NCBI GenBank assembly: GCA_044892525.1
Contig: CM097885.1
Span: 23,190,001-23,254,000 of the forward strand
Direction: 5' to 3'
DNA: 64,000 nucleotides
Source of the DNA: Schmidtea polychroa
Taxonomy: Eukaryota
In this document: positions 4,478 to 61,753 of the stretch, one piece after another
Layout of the letters: the number at the start of each line of letters is the position of its first letter
Position numbering within the stretch: the stretch's first letter is position 1
Position numbers and translations under genes: made by a program
The notes under the pieces: generated by a model
Databases searched by the model: none
What the model was told of the DNA's origin: nothing
The model's input: only the letters and a program-made list of their open reading frames with translations

Positions 4478-4915
4478 TTAGAAATCGACTAATGAAATTA
4501 TCTCATTTCGAACATTGTCAACAAATTCTCTATACTCCAAATTTCTCAACCCCAGCATGACAACCTTTCCACTAGCAAACACGTTGACACAAATAGGGTT
4601 ATATTTTAATAGTCTTAGTGCTGGAAACAATTCCGGTTCAAACATACAATCACATTTTTTCGACATGTTATATAGATTGATACTATGTCCCATATCCATA
4701 GTAACGGTAATTGATTGGATTGTAATATTATTTATTCGATATTGTAATTTATTAATATCCAAAGGTTTCTTACATCCCATGATTCTGCATTTACCAGTCT
4801 TGAAAAATATTATCGGATATTTCCCACTTCTATCGATAATTTGCTGGGGTTTCCCTGGTGGGAACCTCATATTCGATACATCAAAATTTCCTCGATAATT
4901 TATATTTGCTAACAT
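4478..4915 (-). CDS. TATA-binding-protein-like protein (two TBP repeats)
   Basis: FEPELFPALR...VNVFASGKVVMLG and IIFFKTGKCRIMGCK match the TBP repeat pattern YEPELFPGL...LIFxSGKxVxTG. Confidence 0.88.
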   Translation of the reverse strand: MLANINYRGNFDVSNMRFPPGKPQQIIDRSGKYPIIFFKTGKCRIMGCKKPLDINKLQYRINNITIQSITVTMDMGHSINLYNMSKKCDCMFEPELFPALRLLKYNPICVNVFASGKVVMLGLRNLEYREFVDNVRNEIISLVDF

Positions 4916-5014
4916 TATTAAATCATTTATGAAAATTAGTCTTTATATATAAATTGAGCACGAGTTCATTAAATCATCGAATATAAACAAATACACATTT
5001 ATAAAATCTTTGAA

Positions 5015-5659: not shown

Positions 5660-5857
5660 ATGTTTCTAAAAGCAAGGGTGAAAAATATTAGGAAATTAAG
5701 AAAAAGTATTAGAAAGACTATTAAAGTTCCAAAGGTTCCACCAACAACTAGTTATACACCATCTAAAAAACTTGTAACTGAAAATTTCTCTGCAATGAAT
5801 CTTATTTCGAAAAATCCTAAACCTAAACGTAAAACCCGTAAAACCAGTAAAAAATAG
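5660..5857 (+). CDS. Small highly basic protein (candidate core protein)
   Basis: K/R-rich 65 aa within the structural cassette. Confidence 0.5.
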   Translation: MFLKARVKNIRKLRKSIRKTIKVPKVPPTTSYTPSKKLVTENFSAMNLISKNPKPKRKTRKTSKK

Positions 5858-5892
5858 TTAAAAATCATCGAAGTTTTCCATTTTTTAATGCA

Positions 5893-6159
5893 TTGTTAAA
5901 GGCCCCGAGTATGAAAAGAATGAATATATTGCAATCATTCCCAAATTTTGTTGTCGATGATTTACTCAATATTATACTTAAAGTAGTCAAAGGCAAAATT
6001 AAAATCAGTAAACATAGGAAACCATTATTATCTTTAGTAAATAATAAAAATCGTAAGCAAATGAGGAAAATTATATATAAACAACAAGGTGGATTTATTG
6101 GTGCCTTGATACCTCTGGCATTATCATTATTAGGTGGAGTTGTAGGAAATCAATCATAA
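5893..6159 (+). CDS. Basic protein with adenovirus pX-like hydrophobic tail
   Basis: Ends QQGGFIGALIPLALSLLGG; the start is uncertain. Confidence 0.6.
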   Translation: MLKAPSMKRMNILQSFPNFVVDDLLNIILKVVKGKIKISKHRKPLLSLVNNKNRKQMRKIIYKQQGGFIGALIPLALSLLGGVVGNQS

Positions 6160-6594: not shown

Positions 6595-6680
<86 letters not shown>

Positions 6681-7264
6681 TTAGGTAAAGAATTCACTAC
6701 TCGGTACATTCTCAATACAAAGCTGCCCATGTTGAAAGATTTAATCGAACATTGAGAGATAGATTAAAGAAATTGTTCGTGCATCAAGGTAATAAAAAAT
6801 GGGTAAATGCTTTACTGAAAATAATAACAAGTTATAATCATTCATCACATCGAGGACTGAATGGATTGAGACCGGTTGATATTACATCAAAAACACCATT
6901 ATCTAAAAAATCTGTAAAAATTGCAAAACCTAAATATAAAGTCGGTGACCATGTTAGAATTAGTAAAATTAGTGCATCACCATTTATTAAAAATTTTGAT
7001 ACAAATTGGAGTGATGAAGTCTTTGTAATTTCAAAAATAAATACTAAACAGAATCCTGTAATGTATGTCATCAATGACAATGATAATAATATTGTACAAG
7101 GGAAATTTTATGAGCAGGAATTACAAGTCATTCCTCCCCCAAAAGTATTTAGAATTCAAAAAATATTGAAAACTAAAAAGGTCGGTAAGGATAAACAATA
7201 CTATATCAAATGGCACGGTTATCAAAACCCGTCATGGATATCGTCAAAAGACCTAGTAAAATGA
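6221..7264 (+). pseudogene. Retroviral-type integrase with chromodomain; intron 6595-6684; small deletions/frameshifts
   Basis: WQMDLM, QTDLG/KEF, HVERFNRTLR, C-terminal YYIKWHGY...SWI. Confidence 0.92.
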
Positions 7265-8265: not shown

Positions 8266-8623
8266 TTCGGATATTATAAGTATGTATAGTGGTAGCCAAT
8301 CTGGCGGTGAATTAACATATTTTATTGGTAAACAGTACGGATCAGGATAATTGAGAACAATTGGTAGATTTTCACTTCCTATTCTTAAACGTATTGGTAG
8401 TTTTGGTATGAAAACTGCTAAAGATGTTATTATGAATGAACAGAAAATATTACCATCTCTAAAATCAAATGCTTTAGCAGAATTAGGGAAAGTTTTACCC
8501 GGGGTTGCAGGTATGTTTCAAAAACCAGCTCCAGTTCCAGCTCATGCTCCAAAACGTAAAAGACATGGAATATCACGTATAAACAAACGAATGAAAGGCC
8601 ATGGAACTATATTTGCAAAATGA
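8258..8623 (+). pseudogene. Core-like protein with QxGG/QYGSG motifs, premature TAA at 8348
   Basis: MANSDIISMYSGSQSGGELTYFIGKQYGSG*LRTIGRF; the copy at ~39150 has Trp at the stop position. Confidence 0.7.
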
Positions 8624-9842
8624 TTTGTGGTAAATCTGAATTATGTATATTTGATAGACCGTCGCCCCAGGCTGTAATAGAATTTGGGGCGTTTGAGGAA
8701 GTTTTTCCAATGAATTCAATTACTGATAGTAGAAATGATATAGAGTTTTATATTAATGGTTCGCAAAATGAATATTTAGATTTGAACGATACTTTATTGA
8801 CTGTTCAGATCAAGGTTATAGATAAAGATAAAAAAGCTTTGGGTGATGCTGCTGATGCAATACCGAACAATTTCATGTTTCATACTCTTTTTAAAGATGC
8901 TGTGTTGGGATTTAATAATATCAAGATTGAAGGTGGTAATAATACATTCAGTCACAAGGCTTTGATAGAAACTATTTTAAATTACAATTCCGATACTAAA
9001 AATACATATCTTACTCCAATGGGATATGCTGCAACCGACGATGAAAGAAAAAAGTGGATTAAAGGCTCAAAAACATTCACCATGTGTTCATCGTTACAAC
9101 TCGATTTTATGGATCAACCGAAATATTTGCTTCCAGGAGTTAATGTCCACATTCAATTGAAAAGATCCGATTCTGCACTAACTCTTACTAGTGCTACAGG
9201 TGCACCAATATGTCAATTAGTTGATGCAAAATTATTGGTGAGAAAAGTACGAGTAGACCCCTCAGTATTAGCAGGTCATCAATTGGGTCTTAATTCAAAA
9301 CATGCAATTTATCCATTAAAAACAAAGGAAATTGTACAATTTGCTATTGCTAAAGGTGCTTCATCAGTCTATAAAGAACAAATATTTGGTGACAGAAGAA
9401 TGCCTAATTTTATTCTGATAACATTTCAAAGTGAAGCACAATATAATGGATCATATACTGCGTCCAGCTCAATTTTCAAAAACTTTAATGTTACATCATT
9501 GACTTTGTCGAAAAATACTGATTATAGAGAAACATATATTCAAGATTTCGAGAATTACAATTTCTGTGCGACATATATGCAGAGCATTGTTAGAAATCTG
9601 GGTTATTTAGATAAAAATTTGAATTGTGGAATAACTCTAGAAGATTTTAAAAGCAAATACCCATTTTTACATTTGTTTTAGCCCCTGATTTTGATTTAAA
9701 TCAAAGTCAATTACCTCAAAATGGAAATTTACGACTGGATATAAAGTTTGCAAAAGCTATTACTGAACCAGTACATGTTATAATATATGGAGTATTTGAA
9801 AATGAAGTTCAAATTACTGCAAATAGAACAGTGTTGGTATAA
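8620..9842 (+). pseudogene. Major capsid protein (double jelly-roll), frameshift near 9667
   Basis: KSELCIF, YLDLNDT, DFMDQPKYLLPGV; the shifted tail GNLRLDIKFAK...ANRTVLV ends at 9842. Confidence 0.9.
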
Positions 9843-10241
9843 ATGTATATTGAAACACAAAAAGTTGTCATGGAGTAAGTTGTTCTTTTAAACTCTGGAT
9901 TTATTTAAGTAGTTCTGTTCAGGTCAATAAAATCGGAAAACAGATATTGGGAAATGAATTTGTTGGAGTTTTTCCTCTAAATAAAATTCCATATTTGAGC
10001 AATAATCAAGCAATAATCATCAATACGCAATCGTCTCATCTTGGTGGAGAACATTGGATAGCTATATATGTGAAACCTGGTAAAATATTAGTGTTCGATC
10101 CTATGGGTTTTTATTACCCGGCTTTGTTGATATCAAAACTACAAACAATGGGGTAATAAAACTATGTTTCAAAATCCCTTGACCCAAACATGCGGTCAAC
10201 ATTGTTTAGCTTGGTTATTGTACAAAAAATTTGATGTTTAA
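9843..10241 (+). pseudogene. Adenain-like cysteine protease, disrupted
   Basis: GEHWIA (His), VFDPMG (Asp), and QNPLTQTCGQHC (Gln/Cys) in another frame. Confidence 0.85.
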
Positions 10242-10446: not shown

Positions 10447-10789
10447 GTGAAAAATATTATTATTTTTTAATTAATTTTATTATTATTCTAATAAATATTA
10501 TTATTTGTAACATAAAGACTGCCTTTGCCTGAGGCATGCACAGTGCAAGTTAACAAAGGCATGACTAACAAAGGCAGTCACATGTAATTCTGAGTGATTT
10601 ACATTACATACATGCATGCGTGTGATTGGTTGAGTGATTAAAATATTCAGTGTATATGTGTGTGTCTATATTCTCATTGGCTGGGACAGGAAAATATTCA
10701 TTCTCTTTATAAACATCGACAAATCTAAAATTTGTCACAATTATTTTAAAATTTTGAAATTTCAAAATCAATTTGATTAATATTCTAAA

Positions 10790-12046
10790 ATGGAAAAGAA
10801 CGATAATAATCGAGCGTTGAGAGGTCTTTTGACTAATGGTAAATTATTATTATTTTTATTCTATTTTATTTAGATCCTTTCAACTGGTTCGCAGTTACCG
10901 AAGACGAATCAATGTTGAACGTGGATCGGATTTTCGGTAAATTTATCATTTTAATTTTTATTAAAATTAATTTTATATATATTTTAGAACCTATTATTAT
11001 TATTAGCGATGATGAAGATTTAATATTTATTGAAGAAATTAATGCCGAAGATGAATCGATTTTAAATATGGAAAATATCGGTAAATTTATCATTTTAATT
11101 TTTATAAATATTAATTTTATATATTTTAGAACCTATTATTATTAGCGATGATGAAGATTTAATATTTATTGAAGAAATTAATGCCCCAGTTAATGATGTT
11201 GGGCAAAACAAGGTTTTCAAAGAAAAAAGTAAATTTATTTTACTTTAGTATTTTATTTTTAAAAATTTTATTTTTTAGCGTTTAATTTTGATATTGATGC
11301 CGAGGAAGTGGATGAAATAAATGATTCAGATAATACCCTCACTTCTATTGAGGAGGTGGACGAAATGAATGCCCTCACTTCTATTGAGGAGGACTCTGAT
11401 TCCGATATGGAATCGAAATGTAAGACTTATTTATTTTTTATATATTTTTATATATTTCTTTAAAATTTTATAAGCACTTTTTAAATATTTTCATATTAAT
11501 TTCATTATTTTCTTAAAAACTTTTATAAATTACTTATGATGAATTTATGAAGAAAATGATTTATGAAGATAATGATTTATGAAAAAAATGATTTATGAAG
11601 AAAATGACGAAAATTATGAATTTATGTTGAAAATGAATTATGAAGAAAATGGTGAAAATTATGAATTTATGTTTGATGAAAATGATTTATGAGGAAAATT
11701 ATGTTGAAAATAATTATATGACGAATATATGATGAAAACGATTTATGAAGAAAATTATGTTGAAAATAATTATATGACAAATATATGAATTTATGATGAA
11801 AATGATTTATGAAGAAAATGACGAAAATATGACGAAAAATATGAATTTATGATTATATGACGAAAATTATGTTGAAAATAAATATGACGAAAATTATGAA
11901 TTTATGATGAAAATTATGAATTTATGAAGTAAATACTACGTTTCTGAAAATAATGAAATTAATATAAAAATATTTAAAAAAGTGATTACGAAACTATAGT
12001 TATAAAATAATTCTTGTAGTTTGCAATGTGCATCTACATTAGTTAA

Positions 12047-12094
<48 letters not shown>

Positions 12095-12169
12095 CTGACC
12101 CTTCTACTATAGTCTACAGTAAGCATGTAGCTATATAGTAGTCTGCAGTGAGCATGCAGCTACTTCTCT

Positions 12170-12243
<74 letters not shown>

Positions 12244-15200
12244 CTTACTCGTCTAATATTTAACATATTCATATAATAATAATCTGACCCATATACTAAA
12301 ATCTCTCTAATATTCTCTCGAATATATTAACCTATTTTCTATAAGGATTTATCATCATTTGTTATATAGTTCATTTGAATTAAATAACAAATGATGATAA
12401 ATCCTTATCGATGTAACAATTAATAACAATTAGAAAAAGAGAATAAAACTTTAATTTTATTATTTAACAGGTAGACTATACCCAAATTATTGTCAATCCT
12501 CAATTGGACATAACGATAAATGTCATCGCACCATGAAAAAGTATTACAGAAAGACGTTTAATTCAGTCAACTTTTTTATATGCCCCAAATGCGTGACTAG
12601 CGAAAAAATACAATATAGGGAATTTTTTAATAAACATCATAGTCACTTAGGGCAATTTTCGATTTCAAAAAATGTTTTATTTAAAAAAATAAATAAAAAT
12701 AAAAAAAAATTACAAAAAAATTTAGAAAAAAATATTATTAAAAAAAATATTAAAAAAGAAAAAACAGATACTATTAAAACAGATACTATTAAAAAAGATA
12801 CTATTATTATTAAAAAAGATTTAAAAAATATTAAAAAAAATATTATAAAAGAAAAAACAGATACTATTAAAACAGATACTATTAAAAAAGATACTATTAT
12901 TATTAAAAAAGATCCTATTATTATTAAAAAAGATTCTATTAAAAGACCTGCTGGTTTAATTAAAAATTATATTCCTAATAAATTATCGCGACCTGAAGTG
13001 ATAGTCATCAGCAAAGATGAATGTGTAGCTTCAACATCTTTCACACAACACGCACCCATTACACAACACGCACCCATTACACAACAAGAAGTGATAGTCA
13101 TCAATGATGAATGTGTAGCTTCAACGTCTTTCAACATATGTCAAATAGGCGGCTCTTTGTTTGAACCTATGGTTGAATCCGATTTGAACGGATCGCGAAA
13201 AACTTTAAAATTGGATATTAGAAATCAAAACTTGGTAAAAATAACCCTAACATCAAAAATTGAAGAAAGATTAATAGAGGAAATAGAAAAGATGGGCAAT
13301 GTAAAAATTCAATTTACAATTTTAATTAAATTTGAAAAAGATGGGGAGATCCGGGATAATTATTTTTCAAACAATGCGCAAGTTTTTTCAGCAAATTTTA
13401 TAAACGAGGGGGTGAGCAAATTAAATGAAAAGATTGAGCAATTCACCTATTTAGGAAGCGGGTGGCGCGTAATGAATATTTTAGAGATAGATTTTATTTT
13501 AACGAAATACGCACCCGTTAGTAGATTATCCGGACATAGCTATATAAAAACCCCATCAGCATTAAAATTAAAACATGCAATAATTAATGTAAAAAACAAC
13601 GACCATAAGTGTTTCTTATATAGCATTCTTGCACTTTTAAAAAGAGAAGAAATAGGTCGTAATCACCAAAGAGCCGCCAAATATATAGAATTTTTACCTC
13701 TATTAAATTATGATGAAAACACAGATTGCCCGATGAGGTTATGCAACATTCCCAAATTTGAAAGGAAAAATCGCGATTTAAACATGAGCATAAACGTTCT
13801 TTCGTATAATCCAGCCAGTTCTGATTGTGATATTTCTCAGGATTATGTAGCTCACCACCCTCATCTTAATATCATACATCGTTCCAAGGTTATAGATGGT
13901 AGGCCGATTTATTTATTACTTTTGAGTAATAAAGATAAATATCATTATACGGCAGTGACAGACTTGGACAAATTAATGAATTGTCATTTAAATGAAAATG
14001 TAAATGTTCAAATAAGGTGTAACTGGTGCCCACATTGTTTAAATGGCTTTAGATATAAGAATGCTTTCGATCAGCATGTTGCTCTATGCTGTAAAAATCA
14101 GACTGGCACAACCTTGTATACACTTCCTAAAAATAAGGATTTATTATTCACAGATTACGCAAAAACCGTTACACCTCCCTTCGTAATTTATGCCGATTTT
14201 GAATCGGTTTTACCAGAACATGAAACATATCATCAAATACATTTACCCATATCAGCAGGTCTTTTATTAATTAATAATTATACAAACACTAAATTTTATT
14301 ATTATTTTTTTGGACCTAATTGTATTTTGGATTTTTTGAGGAAAGTGGAGGAAATTGCTGTCACAATTGTCCTGCCATATTATGAACTCGAAGGTCATAA
14401 AGGTATGTCTACTTTGTCTTTTGCTCAGGAGCGTGCCTTTCGATCTACCACTATTTGTTATTTGTGTAAAAAAGCTATTATTAATCCTGTGAGAGATCAT
14501 TGCCATTTTACAGGTAGATATGTCGGAGCGGCATGTAGGAAATGTAATGTCTCTCGCAGGATTAATAAATTGTTACCTGTTGTCTTTCATAATTTACGAG
14601 GCTATGACCTCCACCATATTTTAAAACATGGTCTCAGTGATTTTCCCCTTTGGGAACTTAAAATTATACCTACCTCTACAGAAAAATTTATATCTTTAAT
14701 TGCATATATTAACAAATTGCCTGTTCGTTTTATTGACAGCATGCAATTTGTTAATTGCTCTTTAGCCAAAGCTGTGAAAACCTTAACTACTTTTCCGTTA
14801 ACTTCGTCTGTCTTTCAAGGGTCGATGATTCACTCTAAAGGTATCTTTCCATATAATTTCGCTACTTCTTTGGATGTTCTTGAATCGACTTTAGAATTAC
14901 CTCCTATTTGGTCTGATGTTACGGAAGATCAGTACGCTGAGGCTCAACTAATGTGGAGTCAGCATAACTGTAATAATTTGTTATATTATATGTTAATCTA
15001 CCTAAAATTGGACGTATACCTCCTCGCAGACTATTTTCAGCAATTCCGCGGTAAGGCAATTGCTTACAATGGTCTGGATCCTCTTAATTTCTACGGGATT
15101 CCCGGTATGTCATGGGCCTCAGCGCTTATGACATTAACGGAACCCATAGAACTTTTGCAGGACATGGAAATGTATAATTTCTATGAGGGAGGTATCCGGG

Positions 15201-15874
15201 GTGGGTTAACATTTGTTAACAAACATTACACGGCTACTTCAGATGATACAGAATTATTGTACATTGATATAAATAATCTGTATGGTTGGGCTCTTAGCCA
15301 AAATCTTCCGTATGGTGATTTTTCTTGGGTGAATAATAACTTAAATGATGTTTTACTTGAATGTATGAACACGGATATTGATAACCTTCCATATGGGTAT
15401 ACTATGGAGGTCGATATCGATATTCCGGAATGTATGCATGACTTTTTGAATGATTTTCCGATTGCGCCGGAAAAGTTGTGCCTGCCTAATTCAAAAGTTG
15501 AGAAGCTGATGCTCACGCATTGGCCAAAGAGGAACTATGTTCTTCATTGGAGGCTTCTCAAATTGTATATAGAATTAGGTGCGGTTGTTGTAAATATTCA
15601 TAGATGTATAAAGTTTAAACAAGGACCTATCTTTAAATCCTACATAGACACCAACACCACTTTACGATCTCAGTCTACTAGCGAGATATATAGGGACTTG
15701 TTTAAATTGTATAATAACAGTCTGTACGGTAAATCCGTTGAAAATCTGAAAAAACGAATGAATTTGAGGTTGTGTAATTCATCCGAAAAGATGATAGTAT
15801 ACTCCTCAAAGCCGACTTTCAGAAAGTCTATAAGAATCGATAACGATCTGATTGTATTTATATATACATATTGA
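10790..15874 (+). pseudogene. Protein-primed DNA polymerase B with five predicted 5' exons; C-terminally truncated
   Basis: Exons 10790-10838, 10874-10936, 10988-11080, 11130-11228, 11279-11419, 12471-15874; YADFES, FHNLRGYD, YIDINNLYG and KLYNNSLYGK present; DTDS motif absent. Confidence 0.9.
11530..11930 (+). repeat. Degenerate tandem repeat (GAAAATGATTTATGAA-like) in the large pPolB intron
   Basis: Visible reiteration of the unit. Confidence 0.8.
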
Positions 15875-16214: not shown

Positions 16215-16363
16215 CTTTAAACAGCTTGCAAGGTTACTAGTCATGCTTATTATACATTTGATGGTTACAATTTCTACATTTTGAAAACTATATTTTGATT
16301 GGCTATCACAATTTTATAAATGTAAGAACAAAAGTAATTTAGTTATTAAGAAATTTATTACTA

Positions 16364-16998
16364 ATGATTTCTATAAATAAAACTGATGAATGTGTAACAC
16401 ATTTGGTAACTTTATTATTTTGTCAATATTTTTTTATATATACCATTTATAGCAAGGAAGTCCTACTAGAAATAAGGAAAAATTATGTCCAACCTATTCT
16501 GAAATTTCATTGAAATTTTTTAACACAGTTGAAGATTTTATAAATAATCATGATACTTACAGTGATAAGCAACTCATAAATATTTTAAAGATTTTCAAAC
16601 ATTCCTCTATTGAATATTTGTTTGATTTATTTAATTATGAGAAATCCATTTTAAAGTTATCTTGTTATTTAATGTACTTAGAAAAAATATCAGTAAACAA
16701 TGATTCACTGAATGAATACTTTTGGAGTTGTATGCATTTAAGGTTGAAACCTAGATATAGTAGATTGATTTATGATTGGATAGCAAAAACCGATTTGATT
16801 GAAAATAAGCTAACGAAAAAACTGAACGATGTTAAGAAAAGGTATTTGACTTGTTCAATTTGTAAAGAAAATCGAGTTTCGGTTTTGTATTTACCATGTG
16901 GTCATGTAATTGTTTGTTCTAAGTGTCACGAGAAGAATGTTCGCAAGTGTCAAGCCTGTTCAACACTGATTAATGAATATCATACTATATATATTTAG
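16364..16998 (+). CDS. IAP-type C3HC4 RING protein, two exons (intron 16406-16452)
   Basis: CSICKENRVSVLYLPCGHVIVCSKC...CQAC...IYI at the extreme C-terminus; the upstream ATG exon splices in frame. Confidence 0.85.
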
Positions 16999-17045: not shown

Positions 17046-17199
17046 GTACATCAATATTTATTTACCTTTGTTAATTTTACATTATTTTATTGTTTAAATA
17101 AATGTATGTTTTGTTGATTTGTTGAGCGTGACCAGTACCCTTGTGAGCATTACCCATAGGGGGACAAAATATTTTGTCGGATAGACTCGGTGTATATAG

Positions 17200-17251
<52 letters not shown>

Positions 17252-17843
17252 TCTTTAGAAATAATAATCTTAATAACAAGATATATGGCTCATTCGAAAG
17301 GCCTTGGATTGAGCTTTAAAATGAGCTATCGATTATTAATGTTTGTTGACGGGAACTTTGAAAATAATTAAAAATAATATTTTTTAAAAATAATAATATG
17401 ACCTTGATGACTCATCGCGATGACTCATATGACCTTGAGAATGACCTTGGATGAGTCATAGGATGACTCAGATGACCTTGAAAATGACCTTGAAAATTTT
17501 TGATGAGTCATAGCATGAGTCATATGACCTTGAAAATTTTTTGATGAGTCATAGTATGAGTCATATGACCTTGAATGAGTCATATGACCTTGAGAACGAC
17601 CTTGAATGAGTCATGGTCTTTGTTTAAATGACCTTGAAAATTTTTATGACTCATCGGATGAGTCATATGACCTTGATGAGTCATAGTATGAGTCATATGA
17701 CCTTGAAAATGACCTTGTTGAGTCATATGTCTTTGTTTAAATTTACTTTTAGACTTAGAATATTTTTGAAAATCTTACCGACGGGGGGAGGGGGGGTACT
17801 GTGCTAGCGGTGCCCTGTGCCAGCGGTGCCCAATCCATCTACT
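17046..17843 (-). repeat. Right TIR of Polinton A
   Basis: Inverted copy of 460-1555. Confidence 0.93.
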
Positions 17844-18206: not shown

Positions 18207-20780
18207 CAGGGATGGCAATTACATGGCACGCGTGCCAAACTTGGCACGCAGACAAAAAACTTCTGGCACTCTAAGAAATTTAAAAAAAGAAGTAGAAAAA
18301 ATTCTTATTATAAAATAATTACTGCTTTTTAAAAAAAAATTTGGACCCAAAATTTTAATCAACGGCTTTGAATTGAATTCTATATTTTTTTCTCTAGTTG
18401 GCTTTGCGTTATTAAATAACGCAATTAATTATTAAATTTAGTTTATTTTGGCACTTTGATAAAAACCTATTTGCCAAAATAACGGTTATTTTGTACATAC
18501 GTATATGGTTGTGTTATAATTCTTGTATATTCTTACATCAGTTTTTAGTTTTGTTTTAACTTGTGCAGTTCAATAAAATTTGTGTTTAATTTTAAATAAA
18601 ATTTATTTTTTGCTGAATTAAAATGGTACCAAAAAAACCAAAACTACAAGATATTCGTAGCTTTGTACTCTCTTGGACTGCTGATTACGGTTTTGTTAAA
18701 CATGGAGATAAAAGTCGGTGCGGTCTGTACTCTGAAATTATTGTATGTCGAACGTCTTCTATTAAGCGACATTTTGAAACCAACCATAAAGAAATTGCCA
18801 AAAAAAATATTGAAGAAAGAAAAGAACTAATTTCTCAACGATTAAAGATAGCTGAAAATCAATCGAATTCATTATCAAAATTTGTAAAAACCAACAGCAA
18901 TGTTACAGAAGCTAGTTTTGAAATTTCTTATTTGATTGCTAAGCAATCAAAACCATTTTCTGATGGAGAGTTTGTAAAAACGGTTATGTTAAAAGCGGCC
19001 GAAAGTTTGTTTCAAGATTTTAATCATAAAGAAAAGATTATTCAAAGAATTCGAGAAGTCCAGCTAAGCCGAAATTCAGTTAAAGATAGAATTTTAAAAA
19101 TAAGTGCGAATATTTCTGATCAACTTTACAACGATGTTAATAGCTGTGACTACATTTCAATTTGCCTCGATGAATCAACAGATATTAAGTCATCTGCCCG
19201 ATTAGCAATCATTGCACGTTATCCGAAAGATAATGAAATGCACGAAGAACTTTTAAAATTAGCAAATATCCCAGAAAGAACAAGAGGTAGTGATATTTGT
19301 GAAGTTGTATTCAATGAATTAAACAAACTTAAAATAAATATTAAAAAAATCATTTCTGTAACGACAGATGGATCTCCTAATAGGACTGGACCAGAGATAG
19401 GTTTTGTTAATTTATTTCAAAACCTAGTTGGTCATCCAATAATAGGCTTTCATTGCATTATTCATCAGCAAGTTCTTTGTGCAAAATTCGGAACTAGCGA
19501 TTTCAAAGAAATATCAGAACAAGTTAATAAAATCATAAATTTTGTAGTTGCACGCGACATGCATAAAAGACAATTTAAAAAACTTTTAAATGATATGGAT
19601 TGCGAATACGATACTCTCTTAATGTGCAATAGTGTACGTTGGCTAAGTCGAGCGACATCCTTAGAACGATTTGTGAATTGCTTGGAAGAAATTCGACTTT
19701 TTTTACACGAATTCGACAGGGATCGTTTTAAAGAATTATATGATACAGAATGGTTAACAAAATTAATGTTTTTTACCGACGTAACATTACATTTAAACGT
19801 TCTTAATAAAAAATTGCAAGGACGAGGAAAAACAATTGAAGTTATGTTTGGATTGATAAAGGGGTTTGAAATTAAATTAGATATTTTTGCTAGAGATATC
19901 GCATCTGGAAAACATAATAATTTTCCGAAACTTAAAAGTTTTTTAAATGAATCTACAATTTTCAAAAAAACTAATTGGAATTTTAATTACGAATTTTCTA
20001 AAGTTCTTGAAACTATAAAAGAACAATTTTCAAATCGATTTAAAGATTTTAAAAGAATTGATAGGCTGTTGAAAATTGTAAATTATCCGGACTTATTCGA
20101 TATACAGGATTTCGATAACAACCTTATTAATTGGATAAAATTAGAAAATTTAGAAATGCAGACAGTAGATTTGCAATCTAATCCTATTTGGACACAAATA
20201 TTTGTGAATATGCGAAAAAATATAGAAGAATTGGAATATCATCGATTGTCACTGGATGGAGAGTCGGAATGCCGCATTGAAAACTTGATATTGGAAGTGT
20301 GGAATAGTATGCCAGAAGCATTTGCTTCTGTTAAAAAATTAGCAATCGCAATGTTAACCATTTTCGCATCCACTTATTACTGTGAGAGTCTTTTTTCTGT
20401 ACTTAATCATGTACTATCAAAGACAAGAAACAGATTAACAGAAGAAGACTCAGCAGCTTGTATTACCTTACAATCGACAACATACCATCCTGATATTAAA
20501 AACCTTGCAAATAATATGAAGCAAAAAACTTCTAACAAAATTTAAGAATTTTTTATTAAATTTATTATTAAACTTTATAATTTTTTTTACTATTTCTTTA
20601 TATTGAATAAATATTATCACATGAACTCAAATATTGAAATTTATTTCTGTTTTCTTGTGAATAAAAAAATGAATAAAAAATGTACATATAACAAATAAAA
20701 GTTACGAGGGCACGCGAAAAAAATTGAATTTAAATTTAGTTTATTTTGGCACTTTGATAAAAACCTATTTGCCATCCCTG
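18207..20780 (+). mobile_element. Full-length hAT transposon (Buster/SPIN-like)
   Basis: TIR CAGGGATGGCAA; 8-bp TSD AATTAGAC at 18199-18206 and 20781-20788. Confidence 0.96.
18623..20545 (+). CDS. hAT transposase, uninterrupted 640 aa
   Basis: LDESTD, TTDG, CIIH, RW and CESLFS catalytic motifs; the BED finger lacks one Cys. Confidence 0.93.
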   Translation: MVPKKPKLQDIRSFVLSWTADYGFVKHGDKSRCGLYSEIIVCRTSSIKRHFETNHKEIAKKNIEERKELISQRLKIAENQSNSLSKFVKTNSNVTEASFEISYLIAKQSKPFSDGEFVKTVMLKAAESLFQDFNHKEKIIQRIREVQLSRNSVKDRILKISANISDQLYNDVNSCDYISICLDESTDIKSSARLAIIARYPKDNEMHEELLKLANIPERTRGSDICEVVFNELNKLKINIKKIISVTTDGSPNRTGPEIGFVNLFQNLVGHPIIGFHCIIHQQVLCAKFGTSDFKEISEQVNKIINFVVARDMHKRQFKKLLNDMDCEYDTLLMCNSVRWLSRATSLERFVNCLEEIRLFLHEFDRDRFKELYDTEWLTKLMFFTDVTLHLNVLNKKLQGRGKTIEVMFGLIKGFEIKLDIFARDIASGKHNNFPKLKSFLNESTIFKKTNWNFNYEFSKVLETIKEQFSNRFKDFKRIDRLLKIVNYPDLFDIQDFDNNLINWIKLENLEMQTVDLQSNPIWTQIFVNMRKNIEELEYHRLSLDGESECRIENLILEVWNSMPEAFASVKKLAIAMLTIFASTYYCESLFSVLNHVLSKTRNRLTEEDSAACITLQSTTYHPDIKNLANNMKQKTSNKI

Positions 20781-22451: not shown

Positions 22452-23578
22452 CTAATTCTTTATTTTTGAGTCCTTGTTCTCTTTAACAATTGCAAATATA
22501 GATGTGCAATAAATCAAACAATCATTTGCTGATATTCTCTTATTTAAATTATAATCCAGCATTTTGTACAATAGTGGTAATAACTTATCATTCTCATCTA
22601 TACCTAATTTTAAATGCAATTTTTTCTCCGGAATTTCAATATTGTCTATTTTAATTTCGCAATTCATAATTTTCTGTTCTTCGTCATTTGGAACGCCCAA
22701 AATTTCAAAAATCTTTATTAACTGATCAGTTTCATTTTCTCCTTTGAAGATTACATCAAATAGAATCATTTCCATGAAAACAATAGCCATTGACCAGATA
22801 TCTATCGAAAGATTATACATTTGATTTTTACATAACAACTCTGGAGCTCGGTAATATCTAAAATTTATTCATTTTAAAATTAAAAAAAAAACAATGAAAA
22901 AAAAAATTTTTAAAAATTTATATAAAATAATTAATACCTTGATCCAACATTGACTGCATTCGATGAACCGGATTCAATTAATTTTGAACATCCAAAGTCA
23001 GCAATTTTAATTAAATCTTGATCAATATCTACTAAAATATTTAGACTTTTAATGTCTCTATGTCCAAAACGTCGAGAGTGCATAAAATCTAAGGCAGATA
23101 GCAAACTAAACATGAAATATTTCCTAGTTTCATTCGATAGAATAATTTTCTCATATCGCAATCTTTGAATTAAGTTATACAAAGATTCTGGCATCAATTC
23201 CATTACTAAACATTGTTTTATACCGTTTTTTGTTGCGTAATTAAAATGATATTTTAAACTAAGAATATTTCTATGACGATCACTAAGTAATGAATGGATT
23301 TCTCTTTCTCGACCGTTTCTATCACTTCTTTTTATGGCCAATATTTGAATCTTTTCTTCATCCAATGAATATTTTGTAGGCAATATTTTTACGTAAGCAG
23401 CAAACACATTTGCGAATGTTCCGGAACCAATATCTTTAATACATTTGACTTGCAATAGAACCTCGGAATTAGAATGTATCACATAAGATTTATATCTGTT
23501 TGAAAATTGAGAAAATGTATTTGTTGTGATTTGACTATGCGTTCTACTGAAATTTGATCGAAAACTGTATACGCTCAT
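22452..23578 (-). CDS. Divergent GSK3-like CMGC Ser/Thr kinase, two exons (intron 22858-22937), 348 aa
   Basis: GSGTFANV, AIK, HRDIKSLN, DFG, spliced SRYYRAPEL, IDIWS. Confidence 0.88.
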
Positions 23579-24748
23579 TGAAAATTAAAAAAGAATATTT
23601 TAAAAACAAATAATTTTGATTAAAATTTTATTTAGTTGCAATAAATTTTTACAATCAATAATTAAGATATTATTTAATATTTACGTAACACAATTATAAA
23701 TTTTGGATAAATTTTAAAAAATTTCTTTTCCAAAACCTGTATTATATAATTTACGTAAATAAAGTTTCAAGTGTAATTATTTTTTATTTGAAATATTACT
23801 TGTAATATTTATGTAACTTAAATATTATAATTTCAGGTGTAGTTACTTTTAATTTGAAAAAAAACCTACACTCAATTATGCACATTTAACTTTACGAAAA
23901 TATTTTAAATATTTAATCAATGACATATGGTAGGTTAAAACAATTTTTTTGTTTAATAAAAACACAAAAAGCTAAACAAATGAAATATATTCTCAGTCTG
24001 TCGTCATAACGGAAACAAAAAATGACATAATAGTTATAATTTAACGAGTTAATTAAACAATCTCAATAAATTCTTTGCTGATTGAATGATAATTTTAGGG
24101 AATTATGATTTGATCGCCAATGTTTCAAATAAAATTCTTTCCCATTTATTATTAAAATTTTAAAATTTTAAAATCTTTTAATTCATTTATCCATTTAAGA
24201 TGTTTTTATATGCTCAATAATATTACTTCTTAAAATCGTCTGTTTTTGAACCCGTATCTGGAGAACACCGTAAATTTTTCTCATTTATGTAACCTTGCAC
24301 CGATTACATGAAAACTTATACTTCAGATCAAACACTAAATATATTGGGATATATAAATGTATTCCTAAACACATTTAATGATTTTCAAAATCTATAATCA
24401 TTTCAATAGAGAAAACTTGAAGTATCTAAAACCTTTCGAATATGGAATAACTAAATTATGAGATTTTAAATGTTTATTATCATTAAATGAACTATAATTT
24501 TCATTGTTTTTATCAAGCGCAATTAAAAGGGAGATCAATGGTTTCCTTAGTCAACCTTCCCACAAAACCCTTTTAATATTCATTTTTATTCAAAAAAGAT
24601 GTGTACTTTTACTAAATTTTTCAAACTTAGACAATAATGACCATGATTTAAAAATCAAGCCTTTTATCAGCGCCGTACCATCGCATGTGCAACAAGGGTA
24701 ATCGAACAGGGTAAAATATTATATGCACTACAAAACTAAAATTAATTG

Positions 24749-30959: not shown

Positions 30960-33952
30960 GCACTGGCGGATTCAGACTATCTGATGGTAGCTTATTAGAC
31001 AATGACGATTCTGATGTGATGACACATGAAGGTAATTTTTGACAGTTACTAAAATTTGAGTAAACTGTGGCGATTCAAATTTTGAAAATCATTTGAAAGC
31101 ATCTAGAGCAGCGGTTCTCAAATTCTTTGAAATTTTATGCGAGGCGGTCCCTTTAAAAATTGTTAGATAGCTTGCGGACCCCTAATAATAAAAAATAAAA
31201 AAGGTATAGCAAATAAAACATATATATTGAGAAAATATTACATCGTAAAGTTAAATGACAATTTTAATGCGACGGATGCAGGCGTTTTTCCAGAACTAGA
31301 GCTTCTAGGTTTGGCTTTGTCTTGGCCAGATCAACTCGCATATCATTTGTCGCGCATAATCTATTTCTTGCTTTTGTTTTAATTGTAAGTAGTGTAGAAA
31401 AGGCCGACTCACACTCATAGGTGGTTGCAAATGGAATGAGGACTTTTAGAGCCATCTTTGCAACATCAGGATAGGACAGTGCCATTTCAATCCAAAAGTC
31501 ACTACAGCAAGTTCCACGGAAAACATGTTTTGCACCCTCATCGTTTATTAAATCAATAAGTTGTTCCTGAACTAAATTGTCGTCCGAGGGCAGGTCACTA
31601 ATGGATAATTCAAATGGGTTAGTGATAAACCGATGGTGTTTTTCAAATTCTAGCAGATCAGGAAAATAGTGAGACATTTCTTTGCTAAGAACGAATACAT
31701 GCTGTTTCATCATTTCAAGAATATCGGCATCGACTTCAAGCTCATTTTCATCAATATATGTATTCAGCTGCGGAAATGGAGCAAAATTCTTATTCTCTAA
31801 CTTTGTAATCCATAGTTCGAGCTTCATTTTGAAAGCCGTCAATTTTTCATGACAATGTAGCACTGTGATATCTTTTCCTTGCAACGCCAGATTGATATAA
31901 TTCACGGATTCAAATATGTCTACCAAAAATGACAAGGAAATAAGAAAACGGACATCGGAGAATTTTGTGTGCATGTCTGGTTTGGTATCTTTCAAAAATT
32001 GCTGAATTTCTTTATGGAGTATAAAAACCCTCTTCAAAACTTTCCCTTTGGAAAGCCACCTCACGTGTGAGTGCAACAAGAGTTTTTCAATTTCGGAATC
32101 ACTTTCTTTGCATAACTCGGAAAACAAACGAGAGTTAAGTGCATTTGATTTTATGAAATTTACATCTGTAATCACATGATTGAGAACATTTTTCAACTCG
32201 TCAGGCATGGTTTTTACCATTAAAGCTTGGCGATGAATAGTGCAGTGTGTACCAATCATGTTTGGGGATTTTTGTTTAACCAAAGTTTGAAACCCAGAAC
32301 GACAACCAAGCATTGCTGGAGCACCGTCAGTACACACGCCAATAAGATTTTCCCATTTGATATCATGCGCTTCAAAGAATCTGTCCACTTATTCAAAGAT
32401 TTTTTTTGCAGTTCTGGTATTGAGAGTTTCACAGAACAAAAATTCATCTTCCAGGTGTTTATCATACGTATATCGTACGTAGACGCAAAGTTGATATTAT
32501 ATCTTTGCAGCAAGGTAATATCAACTCTTCTCCAATATTGTGTGGTTTTTACCCCCGCGGCTATTTTCCTTGAAACCTCATAGGACGCCCTCAGACCAGC
32601 CTTAATGTTCTGCGACCAGATTCCTGTGTCATCAATCCTGGAGTTGTGCAGTCGTTCGGCTTGGCGCTTAAAGAAGTCGACATCTTTGGTCATTGAGCTG
32701 GGATGCTTCGTTTCTAAGTGTCTCTTTAACTTGCTGGGTTTAAGAGAAGATGGTGCCAGCACCTGAGAACACAAGACACACTGTGGTTTCTCTTCACCTT
32801 TCGAATTTATTACAGTAAACCCATATTGTAAATATGAAATGTCATATCTCATTTTCTTTTTGGTGGGCATCTTAAATCTAAAAAAATCGATAAAATAAAA
32901 TAAAATTATAAATTTATAAAATTATACAGTAAAAGTTAATGTTTTTTATACCACAAACTGTTTACAAGAAAATAAAATACTAAATGTGATGCGTCGTTCA
33001 CTCGGAGAAAATACAATTAAAGGCAAAGAATAAGCAGACAGGCCTGCTATATAAACCCTCGAGGTTTGACCGAGTCGAGGTGACAACGTTACAATTTAAA
33101 ACAATGACGTCACAAATTAGCATACAACCTCAACATGCATGCAAAATATTGGAGACACAAAACGCAGTTTTACTCCGTAAGGGGGCTAATGTTGAATTGA
33201 TTTTTAATAACAGAAATGATTAAATTATTTTTTGATGTTTTTTTTAAATGATTTAAAAAAATGATTTAAAAAAATAAATATGCGTTAGCTCGTAGCGGTC
33301 CCCACTTTGCGAACCGCTGATCTAGAGCGTCAGCAACATACATTAGCAATACCACACAAAATGCATTAATTGAATGCTGTGGAGAAGAAATATGTGAACA
33401 AATTTTGAGTCGTGTTAGAGAATCAAATTATTATGCTATTATGTTTGACAAAACAACTGATGCATCACATAACTCACAAATGACTACAATATTACGTTAT
33501 GTGATATCTGATGGATCAGTTCGAGAAGATTTTGTTGGATTTGTTGATCTGCATACCCAAAATTATCAAGCTGAAATTAATACATCCATTGACAATGAAC
33601 CTATTCTTGACTCCAAAATTATTGGTCAATCGGTTATAAACATGTTAGAAAAAAAGTTACACCTTTCTCTAGAAAACTGTGTCGGTGTGGGAACAGAAGG
33701 TTGTAGTGTTATGTCGTCATTGCAAAAGGAGTAGTAGTTGAAATTCAAAAAGTTGCAGTGAATGCTGTTTGGTGTCCATGTTATGATCATGGTTTATATT
33801 TAACTTTATCAAAGAGTTCAAACGTACAAGTAATAAGAAATTGTTTGGGTGTTCTTAGCGAAGTTGTTGATTTTTTCAATGCTTCTGCAAAACGAAATTT
33901 TATAATAAAGAACATGCTAAATTCACAATTTCACAGATTTCTTGGTTCATAA
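30960..33952 (+). pseudogene. Decayed hAT transposase (THAP12/ZMYM1-like) interrupted by a second hAT
   Basis: NHLKASRA|SATYISNTTQNALIECC...FDKTTDASH reads across the insertion. Confidence 0.75.
31109..33319 (-). mobile_element. hAT (Buster/Charlie-type) with frameshifted transposase 31264-32870
   Basis: TIR CAGCGGTTCKCAAA; TSD ATCTAGAG at 31101-31108 and 33320-33327; BED finger, CTDGAPAM, CESAFS. Confidence 0.95.
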
Positions 33953-35406: not shown

Positions 35407-38400
35407 TTTATGTATTAAAATAATCGTAAAAAAAAAGAAGGTTTGAAAATATAGTATTTCAATCAAAAATGAAGGTTGTTTAAAATGTGAAAATTAAGTC
35501 GCGTTTCGAGATTTTTTACAAATAATGCTATTCATTCAATAGACAATAAACAAAATGTTACGATTAATGTTATTAATGCATCAAGAAATACAACACAGAA
35601 AGTATATTTGAAGATCAAAGTTGGCTATTTCTATATAAAAAAAATAATTTTATATTCCAAAATAATTTACTTTTTGTTAATTTAAATAAATCGTGAATAT
35701 TTCTCAATAACCCTTAAATACCCTACCTATCTTAAAATATAAAACCGTTAAAAGCTATATTTCTATGTAAATATTCAAAATTCCCGTGCAAACTAATTTT
35801 ATGAAGCGCAGCTAACTTCATTCTATATTAAAATGTCATATATGATGTATTCTTAGTTTTAGGATTCGAAGAAATTAATGTGTATATTTTAATTTTTAAT
35901 GAAATAGTCAATTAGTCTTGGGCATTTAAGGGCTAATTTATAATTAAAAGTTCAATTACATTTATTTATTAAATATAAAAATGACTATTAAATATTTAAA
36001 AAAGAAATTTGTAAAAGAAATATTTAAAAATAGTAAAGATTAATCTGTTTAAAATTATTTTTGTGCTAAATGATAATATTAAATAATATAAATTTTAATC
36101 AAAATTGATTTTTAATTAAAAATTCGTTTCATACATTTTGTTTTTTAAATTTTTTTTTCGGTTTAGTTTTCATTTTATTTTACATACCATTTGTTATTTA
36201 CTTATTTTTTTGTAGCACTAAATAAATTCTTTTGTGATTTTAAATGATATATATAATAAAATTAATAATATTTTAAATTAATATTCAAATTTTTTGACTC
36301 CCAATTAAATTTTTGTAAATTAAAATCAATCGTCAACATTTCTCAATTATTAATTAAAAGTTCTAATATATTTAGTTATTTATTTTACTATAAAATATAA
36401 AATTTTTAATAGTCCTTTCACTCTTTCCAAATCATATTTGTAAAAATAATATCATGATATTCAATCTTATTCATTTCCACAAACTGCAATGTCTTTTTTA
36501 GAACATGGCTATATGTTTTGTTTTTTTAACAATTTAATTTCACTTGTCTTTATTCCAATCAAAACCCAACAAATTTCCATTGACTGAAGATAGAAAGAAA
36601 ATACATTAACAGTTGTCATCCTAATAATATCATCAAACAATATAATCCAAGAACGTTTTTATGCGGATGTATGGATTTATTTTATAAATGAAATAAAGAT
36701 AAAAAATTTTTATATTTAATAAATTTTTATCACATGTCGCATATATTTTGATTGACTGCAAACTATTAACAAATGACCCCAGTACTCATAAAAAATGCAA
36801 TGTAAACCTTTAAATCATCTAAGTTTATTTGTCATATTTTTTAAATAATGATTAACAAAGTCACCTTAACCTACATTTAAATTATCATAGATTATTCATA
36901 AAACATTCGATTCTCCTAAATAGTGTAATGCCTCCTAAAGCTAGTGATCCAAGCAATAAATTCTCAAAAATTATCCAAAATACTCTAAAAATACTCGAAT
37001 TTCGTCATTATATTCTAAATTTAATATACAAAGATCTTCAATACATCTTAGCCCATTCTATCATTTACCCTCAAATTACCCCAAAACTTAAGGTTCCTTA
37101 AAGATAATATATTTTTTTAAATAACCAAACAAATATAATAAATTATCATTAATATCAAAAACCAATAGATCATTTATATTCCAAGCTCTCTTAATTAGAA
37201 CAAATTACTCTAAATCAGCGATCTTCAAACTTCAAAAGCTCATGAACCTTTATGTGAACAAAATTTATTTATGTATTGAGGTTCTCAGAATCTTAACCTG
37301 ATGGTTCCTATATAAATAAGAACACAAACACTGGTTCAAAAAACTTTATTAAATAATAAAAATTATGTACGCAAAAATAAAATCACCTTTTATAAAAATT
37401 ATGCAATTGTTTTGTTTATTTTTCTTAGTGTGTTTTCTTTGCTATATGTCCCTACTTGCTACTACCTGTACTCGGTTATATAATTTTGTATGCTCGAAAT
37501 TATATTGTAATATCAATTACTGAATTTGGAACTCTTCTTCGTTTAAAATTTTTCGCTGATTTGACTAAGGAAAACTATGGTTTATATATATATTTTTTGT
37601 GGCTCTCCATATCAAGTAAAGAAGTATTTCAAATGTCAGTAGTGTTTGTTTTTTCATAGCCACATTTCTTTTTTTAAAAGTGCAGATCTGTAACTATTTT
37701 TAAGGTTATCTTTATTTTGGTTGGAAGCAGTATATTACCCATTATATTGTGTTTCACTTTGAAAGGTTATCAAAATAAAATTAGGCATTCTTCTGTCACC
37801 AAATATTTGTTTATGATGAAGAGCCTTTAGAAATAGGGAATTGTACAATTTTCTTTGTTTTTAATGGATAAATTACATGTTTTGAATTAAGACCCAAATG
37901 ACGACCAGCTAATACTGATGGGTCCACTCGAACTCTTCTCACCAATAATTTCGCATCAACTAATGGACATATTGGTGCACTGGTTGCACTAAAAAGAGAT
38001 AATGCAGAATCGGACCTTTTCAGTCTTAAAGTGTACATCAACTCCTGAAAGCAAATATTTCGGTTGATCCATAAAATTGAGTTGTAATGACGAGCACATG
38101 GTGAAAACCTTTGAGCCTTATTCCACTTTTTCATTCATCATCTGTTGATGCAAACCCCATAGGATTAAGACATGTATTTTTAGTATCGGAATTGTAATTT
38201 AAAATAGTTTCTATTAAAACTTTGTGAATAAATGTAATATTACCGTCCTCAACCTTGATATTATTAAATCTGAGAACTACATCTTTAAGAAGAGTATGCA
38301 GCAGGAAATTGTTCGTTATTACATCTGCATTGCCATCCAAAACCTTTCTTTCTTTATATACAACCTTGATCTGAACAGTCTATAAAGTCTCGTCCAAATC

Positions 38401-38743
38401 TAAATATTCAGTTTGCGAACAATTAATATACAACTCAATATAATTTCTACTATCAGTAATTGAATTCATAGGAAATACTTGCTCAAATGCCCCAAATACA
38501 ATTACAGCCTGGGATGATGGTCGATCAAATATACATAATTTAGATTTATCACAAATCATTTTTCAAATATAGTTCCATGTCCTTTCACTCGTTTGTTTAT
38601 AAGTGATATTCAATGTCTTTTACGCTTTGAAGCATGAGCTAGGGTTGGGGCTGGGTATGTATCTTTTTGAAACATACTTACAACCCATGGTAGAACTTTC
38701 CATAATTCAACTAGAGCATTTTATTTTAGGGAAGGTAATATTT

Positions 38744-39060
38744 TGTTGGGTATTTGTGAAAGTCGGTAACCTTGTCTGACTCCTTCGTGTCCTTTGAAAC
38801 TAAGTTAAACACCCAACACAAAATCTTTATTCGAGACTAATACAATTACACTTTTGTTACACTTTTTACTGATTCCACCACACTTGATACAACCACTTTT
38901 GCACCTTTCAATACTACTGGAAATCTTACGCAGTGATGAATCTTCCAATGGGAGATGTCCCTTTCTGGTACCCTAAATTATTCAATTGACACTAACTTCA
39001 AAGTTTTCTTTGTTACTCTCACTAAATTTCTCATTTCCTTTTCTTCGAACAACTGGCGGC
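38744..39060 (-). mobile_element. Truncated LTR-like insertion in the core gene
   Basis: Starts TGTTGGG and shares CTGACTCC..CGTGTC..AAATCTTTATT with the solo LTR at 45455. Confidence 0.5.
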
Positions 39061-39754
39061 TCATAATCACGTATTTAGCAGTTTTCATACCAAAACTACC
39101 CATACGTTTAAGAATAGGAAGTGCAAATCTCCCAATTGCTCGCAACCATCCTATCCGTACCGTTTATCAATAAAATATGGTAATTCACTGCCGGATTGGC
39201 TACCACTATACATACTAATAATATCAGAATTAGCAATTTACTTTACGAAAATGTAATGTCAAATGAGTTTTTGAATCTTTAAGTAATTTTAAGTAATTTT
39301 CCAGAATCATCTCTTATATTTATTTCTATATTGTTTACATAAGATGTTGAAACAGGCAAATACATGGAATTTCCTACATTTGTACAACTTCGTCTTGTTC
39401 ATGTTTTTCAATTCATATTGATTTCAATAAAGGAACACTAGAATCACCAACAATGACGGGGTCAATGACATTACTGTAAATGAACATTTGTTGATGAAGT
39501 TTAATTATTTTCGGAAATAAAGTACCTTCATTAATTTTACCATCTTTAACATACATATTTTTGGGTAATCCCAAAGTAGTTTTCAAGTTATTATCAAAAT
39601 GGACACTTGAGAGTGTCTTTAATTTTAAATTTAAATTTTTTATTTTTCGCAAGCTCAACCGATTCGAAAATCATTGCACAATTTTCGATAAATAAGTTTT
39701 TAATTTCATTATATATTTCATTATCTATTTCAGTTACATATAAATCTTCTTTAA

Positions 39755-40050
39755 CCACTTGCGCTATATTGACATGCCAGGCACGTCTTGATGATTTTTT
39801 TCAGAACTGCAAGTGATGTGTATACCACGTCGATAGTATTTGTCGCAAAAACAAAAACGACGTGTTTGCAACGTTGTTGTTGTGAATAATTATTTATATT
39901 CGTGTAAATCTTTTATGTAAGACCCTACCCTCGCGCTAAGCACTGGTCAAACCTCTGAGCTCGCTGACGCGGTGAGGCGTCGATGCCTTACGATACTTTA
40001 TATAGTAGAGCGCGGCTCAGCTACCGAAAATTAAATCATAGCGCAAGTTG
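39755..40050. mobile_element. piggyBac-type MITE, copy 1
   Basis: TIR CCACTTGCGCTAT (one mismatch), TTAA TSD, near-identical to 49848-50143. Confidence 0.92.
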
Positions 40051-54343: not shown

Positions 54344-54398
54344 TTCATAATATATTTAATTAATCCTATTGTGTGTGTGTAAATTTTAATATATAAAA

Positions 54399-55691: not shown

Positions 55692-55708
55692 TATTTTAAC
55701 ATTTTAAA

Positions 55709-57118: not shown

Positions 57119-57129
57119 GTCGACAAGCC

Positions 57130-57921: not shown

Positions 57922-57936
57922 TTTGTTTATTATAAA

Positions 57937-61745: not shown

Positions 61746-61753
61746 TTATTAAA

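Follow-up and report, generated by a model that had tools for sequence, protein, structure and literature searches.

A spliced, acidic leader with SUMO-interacting-like motifs predicted ahead of the DNA polymerase of a Maverick element in Schmidtea polychroa

In this work, we analyzed a stretch of 64,000 nt from the Schmidtea polychroa genome (NCBI GenBank assembly GCA_044892525.1, contig CM097885.1, positions 23,190,001 to 23,254,000 of the forward strand), referred to below as the window, in which all positions are numbered from its first letter. The window contains a Maverick/Polinton element with a gene for the DNA polymerase pPolB, and five micro-exons upstream of the annotated start codon of this gene encode a leader that is very probably spliced with pPolB into one mRNA. 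The best explanation overall, to which we assign a probability of about one half, is that pPolB is made as a precursor with a spliced acidic leader carrying words similar to SUMO-interacting motifs (SIMs), and that this leader is shed at the di-glycine site QIGG.

Structure of the leader and its probable joining to pPolB

The pPolB leader is composed of five stop-free exons of 49, 63, 93, 99, and 141 nt on the + strand, with every junction in phase 1, a GT donor on all five exons, and an AG acceptor on exons 2-5. Exon 1 (10790..10838) provides the ATG and contains an amphipathic word that we take to be LxxLL-like. Exon 2 (10874..10936) is acidic-aromatic and includes a W-x-x-V word. Exon 3 (10988..11080), chimeric by duplication, encodes the SIMa-like PIIIISDD and the SIMr-like DEDLIFI, and exon 4 (11130..11228) encodes the SIMa-like PIIISDD and again the SIMr-like DEDLIFI. 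Exon 5 (11279..11419) consists of 12-aa acidic repeats, and its final base opens a Cys codon at the junction with the main exon. The introns between these exons are 35, 51, 49, and 50 nt long with a GC content of 6-9%; they are followed by a long intron of 1051 nt (11420..12470, +), a scan of which for an in-frame stop-free exon found none. As a result, 169 codons are added ahead of the annotated pPolB ATG at 12533. An earlier note on this DNA had proposed that the five exons and the acceptor ending at 12470 join in frame, adding about 169 aa before the ATG, and the coordinates and reading frame confirm this. In exons 2-5, D/E make up 31% of the residues and ILVMF 35%, and the leader is likely acidic and disordered. 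A Pol II promoter is predicted 5' of exon 1 (10623..10719, +) from reverse CCAAT boxes (ATTGG) and TATAAA, and the CCAAT and TATAAA words were found at this place in all 66 parsed copies of the element (66/66; see below).

Splicing of the leader onto pPolB, also proposed in the earlier note, is strongly supported by a frame-blind parse of genomic copies, by the codons preceding the annotated ATG, and by the junction Cys, with additional hints from RNA. The 20 codons upstream of the pPolB ATG are stop-free in 76/76 copies, and in 48 non-independent pairs of divergent alleles they differ with a synonymous proportion (pS) of 0.80 versus a nonsynonymous proportion (pN) of 0.25. The codon formed across the junction of exon 5 with the main exon is TGT or TGC (Cys) in 63/64 copies. 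This residue completes a C-x5-6-C-x4-6-H-x3-5-C module, predicted to bind zinc, at the start of the main exon (12471..12700, +; C-x6-C-x5-H-x3-C in the window, then CxxC and HH), and in the window copy the first Cys of the module is present only across the splice junction. The module with its first Cys contiguous was identified in 6/10 near metagenome relatives, and P0023 contains it twice. Other fates of exon 5 were considered and rejected: for a small-t-like read-through past its donor, the AT-rich sequence there is unconserved, and for splicing of the leader to the RING gene of the element, the nearest RING acceptor is out of the leader phase.

Further hints were obtained from contigs of sequencing run X1, which is only guessed to be RNA. 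Two of these contigs align from exactly 11279, the predicted start of exon 5, and one aligns from exactly 12471, the predicted start of the main exon, each carrying 19-38 unaligned letters upstream. Upstream of 11121, one contig has a loose end that can be read in frame from an exon 2-type end into a PIII exon; it agrees with exon 2 ends at 12-18 of 22 positions and with intron ends at 2-11 of 22. The first loose-end motif was not found within 5 mismatches in the sampled loci. The joint of exon 5 with the main exon was not seen in the RNA contigs, nor was any exon-skipped mRNA seen: the single 144-nt skip retains intron sequence and matches copies without the duplication. The contigs are consistent with splicing and suggest one spliced exon 2-3 junction reading.

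Conservation of the leader among genomic copies

The genome searched comprises 781 Mb, mostly in four contigs. The leader search returned 60 matches with 73-100% identity (40 of 1525 candidates scored), and the search with the terminal protein (TP) region returned 150 scored matches with 96-100% protein identity. From these, 80 stretches were selected non-randomly: similarity to the leader supplied 20, TP matches supplied 40 (20 of them with long open reading frames, ORFs), and matches to an outside relative supplied 20. Two of the 80 stretches lacked a TP match, leaving 78 copies, and 66 of these were parsed by frame-blind intron rules. The 12 unparsed copies include 2 without an acceptor, 9 without the exon 2 motif, and 1 without the first intron; at least three of the 12 do show a leader by another parse, and in several others none was found.

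In the 66 parsed copies, the length of internal exons is a multiple of three in 218/225 cases (39/44 distinct lengths), whereas that of short introns is a multiple of three in only 49/240 cases (8/24 distinct lengths), a contrast that places the leader frame beyond chance. The long intron varies from 945 to 1792 nt, with a 20/16/15 split of its lengths modulo 3. Exon 1 is 43-55 nt long and ends in phase 1 in 56/63 copies; in the seven exceptions, the call is 32 nt long and stops at a GT further upstream, and five of them read as 46 nt by the other parse. Exon 5 extends over 141-381 nt. Exon 2 is constant at 60-63 nt and is the most conserved leader exon, with 8/20 positions invariant among 18 distinct peptides. 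Three short introns were found in 26 copies, four in 39, and six in one, and none of the copies has a single-exon leader. Among the divergent leaders, L097 has three duplicated exons containing QII, and one exon of L104 holds VIMLSDEEDEIIIISDEEE.

SUMO-interacting-like motifs in the leader

The strict SIMa, SIMr, and SIMb patterns, in which SIMr is defined as (DSE)3(ILVM)x(ILVMF)2, were taken from the accessible part of a published survey (PMC3395311) and applied to the leaders of 57 copies that parsed cleanly, which comprise 44 distinct sequences, with composition-matched shuffles as a control. Exons 3 and 4 of the window copy each hold one SIMa and one SIMr sharing an acidic run. The window leader has 4 strict SIMs versus 0.39 in the shuffled sequences (P 0.0004), and 2 versus 0.21 when exon 3 is left out (P 0.018). 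Among the 44 distinct leaders, the mean is 2.23 strict SIMs per leader versus 0.22 after shuffling, an approximately tenfold excess. A strict SIMr of the reverse type (DEDLIFI/DDDVVFI) is present in 43/44 of these leaders and a SIMa of the PIIIS type in 23/44, and the number of strict motifs varies from 0 to 4 between copies at the DNA level. The SIMr word is retained across subfamilies with differing flanks, and subfamilies that are only ~50% identical at the start of the main exon retain both the SIMr and SIMa words.

The earlier note had interpreted PIIIISDDED, PIIISDDED, EVIVISKDE, and EVIVINDE as SIMs. All four words are found in the window sequence, and those of exons 3 and 4 match the published patterns, whereas EVIVISKDE and EVIVINDE (12995..13110, +), located in a disordered linker with a predicted local distance difference test score (pLDDT) <50, fail the strict patterns and are SIM-like in a loose sense only. 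The whole main exon has 0 strict matches and 1 match (P 0.09) by a loose rule, which is our own and wider than the published patterns. The motif that is kept among copies is the reverse SIMr, not named in that note. By the loose rule, SIM-like words precede TP in 5/14 outside relatives, three of which are one family with four tandem copies. Judged from sequence, the leader motifs may well bind host SUMO, with the odds slightly in favor of such binding. Host SUMO itself was not found in the genome: a search with PF11976 gave ubiquitin, NEDD8, and ubiquitin-like repeats, and two degenerate motif searches were empty. Many of the 150 scored genome-wide ubiquitin-like matches are located in long ORFs of recurring length (1153 and 1395 aa), which suggests a repeat family with ubiquitin-like domains.

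A di-glycine site between the leader and the terminal protein

A QIGG-S sequence (13142..13156, +) is located at the border between the disordered region and the first folded domain and is a predicted cut site for an adenain-like protease. An xxGG counterpart of this site precedes the TP domain in 68/71 open frames of the copies and in 7/10 nearest outside relatives (9/10 counting GxG), where the flanks do not align. In the AlphaFold model, pLDDT is <50 through residue 228 and the fold starts from residue ~230, with the two glycines at residues 226-227. According to the available portion of PMC4246237, cleavage by the adenovirus protease occurs at (M/I/L)XGG, with Gln also tolerated at P4, and QIGG fits the relaxed XGG adenain consensus with Gln at P4. 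The gene for an adenain-like protease (9870..10230, +; PF00770, E 1.4e-5, over the cut-off) belongs to the same element. As the conserved QIGG before the predicted TP fold fits the adenain consensus, the leader is likely a cleavable precursor, and it is probably cut off at QIGG by this protease. The suggestion of the earlier note that the polymerase/TP is targeted to SUMO-rich nuclear bodies overlooked the di-glycine site, which would remove the leader; to our knowledge, PML bodies are vertebrate-specific.

Similar words occur elsewhere in the element: QQGG (5851-6159) stands before an amphipathic FIGALIPLALSLL stretch, and QSGG and IEGG are present near 8303 and 8932. These words in structural proteins are candidate sites for the same protease.

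Origin of the phase-1 exons and outside relatives

Exon 3 was produced by a tandem duplication of 10898-11046, a unit that runs from the last part of exon 2 through intron 2 into the first part of the exon that follows, and introns 2 and 3 are identical at 47/51 positions. The exon duplication claimed in the earlier note is thus real as a tandem duplication, and exon 3 is a chimera rather than a whole-exon copy. Because such a duplication copies the phase of one intron, all exons come to have equal phase, and their symmetry needs no selection for exon skipping. The proposal that symmetric exons serve to tune SIM number by alternative splicing is unsupported; motif number differs between copies in DNA, and equal phase is inherited by duplication.

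Outside S. polychroa, 62 of 80 metagenome loci were examined for intron chains before TP. Chains of at least two short AT-rich introns were found in 6/62 loci, all of them nearest relatives (37-48%); in five of the six, all junctions are in phase 1 and the exons, some of which are duplicated, are multiples of three with lengths of 24-63 nt, and the sixth parsed badly. Single-intron calls, probably due to chance, were made in 4/62 loci, and the remaining 52/62 had none. No relatives were found in the viral contig search or in a metagenome search with a single query. The spliced phase-1 leader is a clade trait, and its SIM content is lineage-specific. In the outside relative L117 (~230-470), each duplicated micro-exon carries IQTGGA, and thus the di-glycine site itself is duplicated.

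The host element and its neighborhood

The pPolB protein is a protein-primed family B polymerase that matches PF03175 (E 5.5e-20) and also PF02945, and its best fold matches are the phi29 polymerase and the bidnavirus-like and adintovirus PolB; a sequence search of the PDB found no relative. The pPolB core (13170..15874, +) includes predicted TP, vOTU, exonuclease, endonuclease-VII insertion, and palm regions, of which TP and vOTU are labelled from known motifs plus Krupovic 2024 and not from a domain-level fold test. The core is shortened in the window copy, which lacks ~0.8 kb after 15854 relative to four close copies and encodes 892 aa from TP to the stop versus 1120-1126 aa in six others. 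The element is bounded by Maverick terminal inverted repeats (arms ~470-1555 and 17050-17800). It encodes a retroviral-like integrase (PF00665, E 1.9e-5, below the curated cut-off) with a chromo-like end, an A32 packaging ATPase (PF04665), a TBP-like protein (4478-4942, -; PF00352, E 2.9e-15), and a RING protein; the candidate major capsid ORF (8560-9681) had no Pfam match. With its five introns, pPolB departs from the intronless gene structure, which is a described trait and not the definition of Maverick/Polinton elements: intact vertebrate Mavericks are described as intronless in the accessible part of PMC8097293. Apparent GT-AG introns also occur in the integrase, protease, and RING genes (6595-6685, 9870-9922, and 16320-16452), the integrase intron being an (ATT)n tract.

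Elsewhere in the window, the ORFs at 7195 and 8560 have decayed homologues in inverted orientation (51-81%) at 37720-40554 (-) and 41091-43334 (-), next to an ORF that encodes a fusion glycoprotein domain of the Monjiviricetes type (PF24664, E 2.7e-45). A second Maverick-like module (54390-62350) encodes a double jelly-roll protein, an A32 ATPase, and a protease-like ORF, and in it a single ORF fuses a phospholipase A2 (PLA2)-like domain with an integrase. The hAT transposase remnants and a protein-kinase exon lie outside the Maverick (18617-20545, 31264-33734, and 22931-23584).

Discussion

The element shares with Maverick/Polinton (adintovirus) genomes, whose pPolB has the order TP-vOTU-EXO-PALM (Krupovic et al. 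2024, bioRxiv 10.1101/2024.03.18.585575; Starrett et al. 2021, PMC8502044; both accessible in part), a PF03175 polymerase with a long N-terminal region, as well as terminal inverted repeats, an integrase, an A32 ATPase, and an adenain-like protease in the same element. Unlike those polymerases, the window protein has ~375 extra residues before the predicted TP, including 149 codons from micro-exons. The accessible passages of these two works discuss vOTU cleavage after TP and not an adenain site before it, and contain 0 occurrences of 'SUMO' and 'splic'; no SUMO passage was found in the accessible parts of nematode Polinton texts. Our literature search found no paper joining Polinton with SUMO-interacting and no title or abstract opening on spliced Polinton polymerase leaders; Repbase and supplements, which were outside its scope, may already annotate exons in Polinton polymerases.

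In adenoviruses, the start codon of the precursor terminal protein (pTP) and polymerase genes is on a distant upstream exon, of which 9 nt are common to pol and pTP in HAdV-31 (PMC2794291), and the viral protease cleaves the N-terminal precursor part of pTP, which has been proposed to affect its location in the nucleus (PMC4246237), as stated in the available portions of these papers. The window gene shares with pTP the distant start codon and a predicted protease consensus between the precursor part and TP. Unlike in pTP, TP and polymerase constitute one ORF, so the protein is pTP-like in its working and not a member of the pTP family, and the leader is spread over 4-5 or more coding exons, with host-type introns of 35-57 nt and acidic, SIM-like content; the likeness is one of organization, and no sequence homology is claimed. 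With multi-SIM proteins such as RNF4 (PMC3395311, PMC3901395; available in part), the leader shares hydrophobic cores with acidic flanks, arranged in tandem in a likely disordered region. Unlike RNF4, the window protein contains no RING, the RING gene of the element being separate.

According to the proposed mechanism, host splicing would yield a precursor with the order leader, zinc module, linker, di-glycine site, TP, vOTU, and polymerase, and the SIM-like leader would bind host SUMO while the precursor acts in the nucleus. Because leader and TP domain are fused, genome ends that have just been primed would be drawn by the leader to SUMO-marked chromatin or to SUMO-dependent host factors. 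At maturation, the adenain-like protease would remove the leader at QIGG, freeing the mature terminal protein, much as adenovirus pTP loses its precursor half. Copies differ in exon number and motif count through tandem exon-intron-exon duplication, and phase 1 is thereby preserved automatically. A bolder version, offered tentatively because we rate it as rather unlikely, envisages a host-spliced, hypervariable multi-SIM module on the TP precursor, which would change fast under host pressure and be removed at a SUMO-like di-glycine by a protease of the Ulp1/adenain type; such a module may target element DNA to SUMO-marked chromatin or blunt SUMO-dependent silencing.

A number of observations weigh against the reading of a SIM-like leader that is spliced and then shed. 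Apart from the uncertain nature of run X1, no joint was found at the predicted introns among those listed, where the introns were repeat-masked and two joints dropped. Unspliced contigs occur in X1 and in another run, X2, and the partner of the contig starting at 12471 is not shown in the alignment. Both loose-end motifs were absent from the genome search, and the intron-bearing source was thus not seen. The genomic copies are related by descent, and hence their counts are not independent events. Exons 1-2, the most conserved part of the leader, contain no strict SIM; even by the loose rule, none precedes TP in 9/14 outside relatives or in 3/5 other main-exon alleles of the genome, and the micro-exons of outside relatives are by inspection not SIM-like. 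The di-glycine signal is weak in distant homologues, 14/62 versus 94/743 control tiles, after a filter that excluded several near relatives. In addition, both the protease, frameshifted near 10153, and the polymerase are broken in the window copy.

Several alternative explanations share the spliced leader and differ in what it does. Its function may reside in exons 1-2, as an acidic activation or host-docking region or through the W-x-x-V word, presumably an Atg8-binding word of the LC3-interacting region (LIR) type, the activation-domain label likewise being our assumption; the SIM-like words would then be by-products of acidic, hydrophobic, AT-rich repeats. The fixed length and the invariant positions of exon 2, the abundance of D/E and ILVMF in exons 2-5, and the TBP-like gene of the element fit this explanation, which we nevertheless consider doubtful, because SIM matches are ten times rarer in shuffled sequences of the same composition and the SIMr word is kept in subfamilies with differing flanks. 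It is improbable that the leader is a tolerated, largely neutral extension of the precursor, whose only important elements are the start codon and the junction Cys and whose exons grow or shrink by duplication. Such neutrality would account for leader DNA (74-98% identity) being far more variable than the TP domain (96-100% at the protein level), for the unrelated or absent micro-exon content in outside relatives, and for a segment that would be cleaved off in any case; it fits poorly with a SIMr in 43/44 leaders, with the conservation of exon 2, and with no parsed copy being reduced to one exon.

The earlier note in its strong form would have a single element adjust its number of SIMs through the skipping or inclusion of symmetric exons, with the mature polymerase/TP remaining in SUMO bodies; this appears very improbable. 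All internal exons are symmetric, so that skipping keeps the frame, and motif number does differ between copies; however, no skipped RNA form was shown, as the 144-nt skip retains intron sequence, the near-identity of introns 2 and 3 indicates an inherited phase, and the di-glycine site would remove the motifs. The least credible alternative is that pPolB starts at a tiny proximal exon (12392..12412, +; ~22 nt, phase 1, ATG near 12392, donor 12413) and that exons 1-5 encode a separate short acidic protein. This exon, present in 47/76 copies, would also supply the Cys, and the proteins of outside relatives begin a few residues ahead of their zinc module. On the other hand, it belongs to one upstream-sequence group and is absent from four others, both promoter words precede it in 0/76 copies, no 58-nt joint was listed, and a protein reading through the exon 5 donor would enter unconserved AT-rich sequence.

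A precursor with a spliced, SIM-like leader shed at QIGG has several implications for this family of elements. Annotation of Mavericks usually relies on single ORFs, and the elements are described as lacking introns; the N-termini of their polymerases may therefore have been overlooked. In the element studied here, the overlooked segment changes faster than any other region and contains candidate motifs for interaction with the host. The phase-1 spliced leaders in related elements from environmental DNA extend this to a trait of the clade. Adenoviruses are thought to derive from polintons, and the combination of a spliced start with a protease-removable precursor mirrors the production of adenovirus pTP; if true, the reading as a multi-SIM precursor would offer a living example of how the splicing and maturation of pTP may have arisen in adenoviruses. 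Because the element has a very high copy number, both SUMO binding and the maturation of the terminal protein can be tested with peptides and with RNA that already exists.

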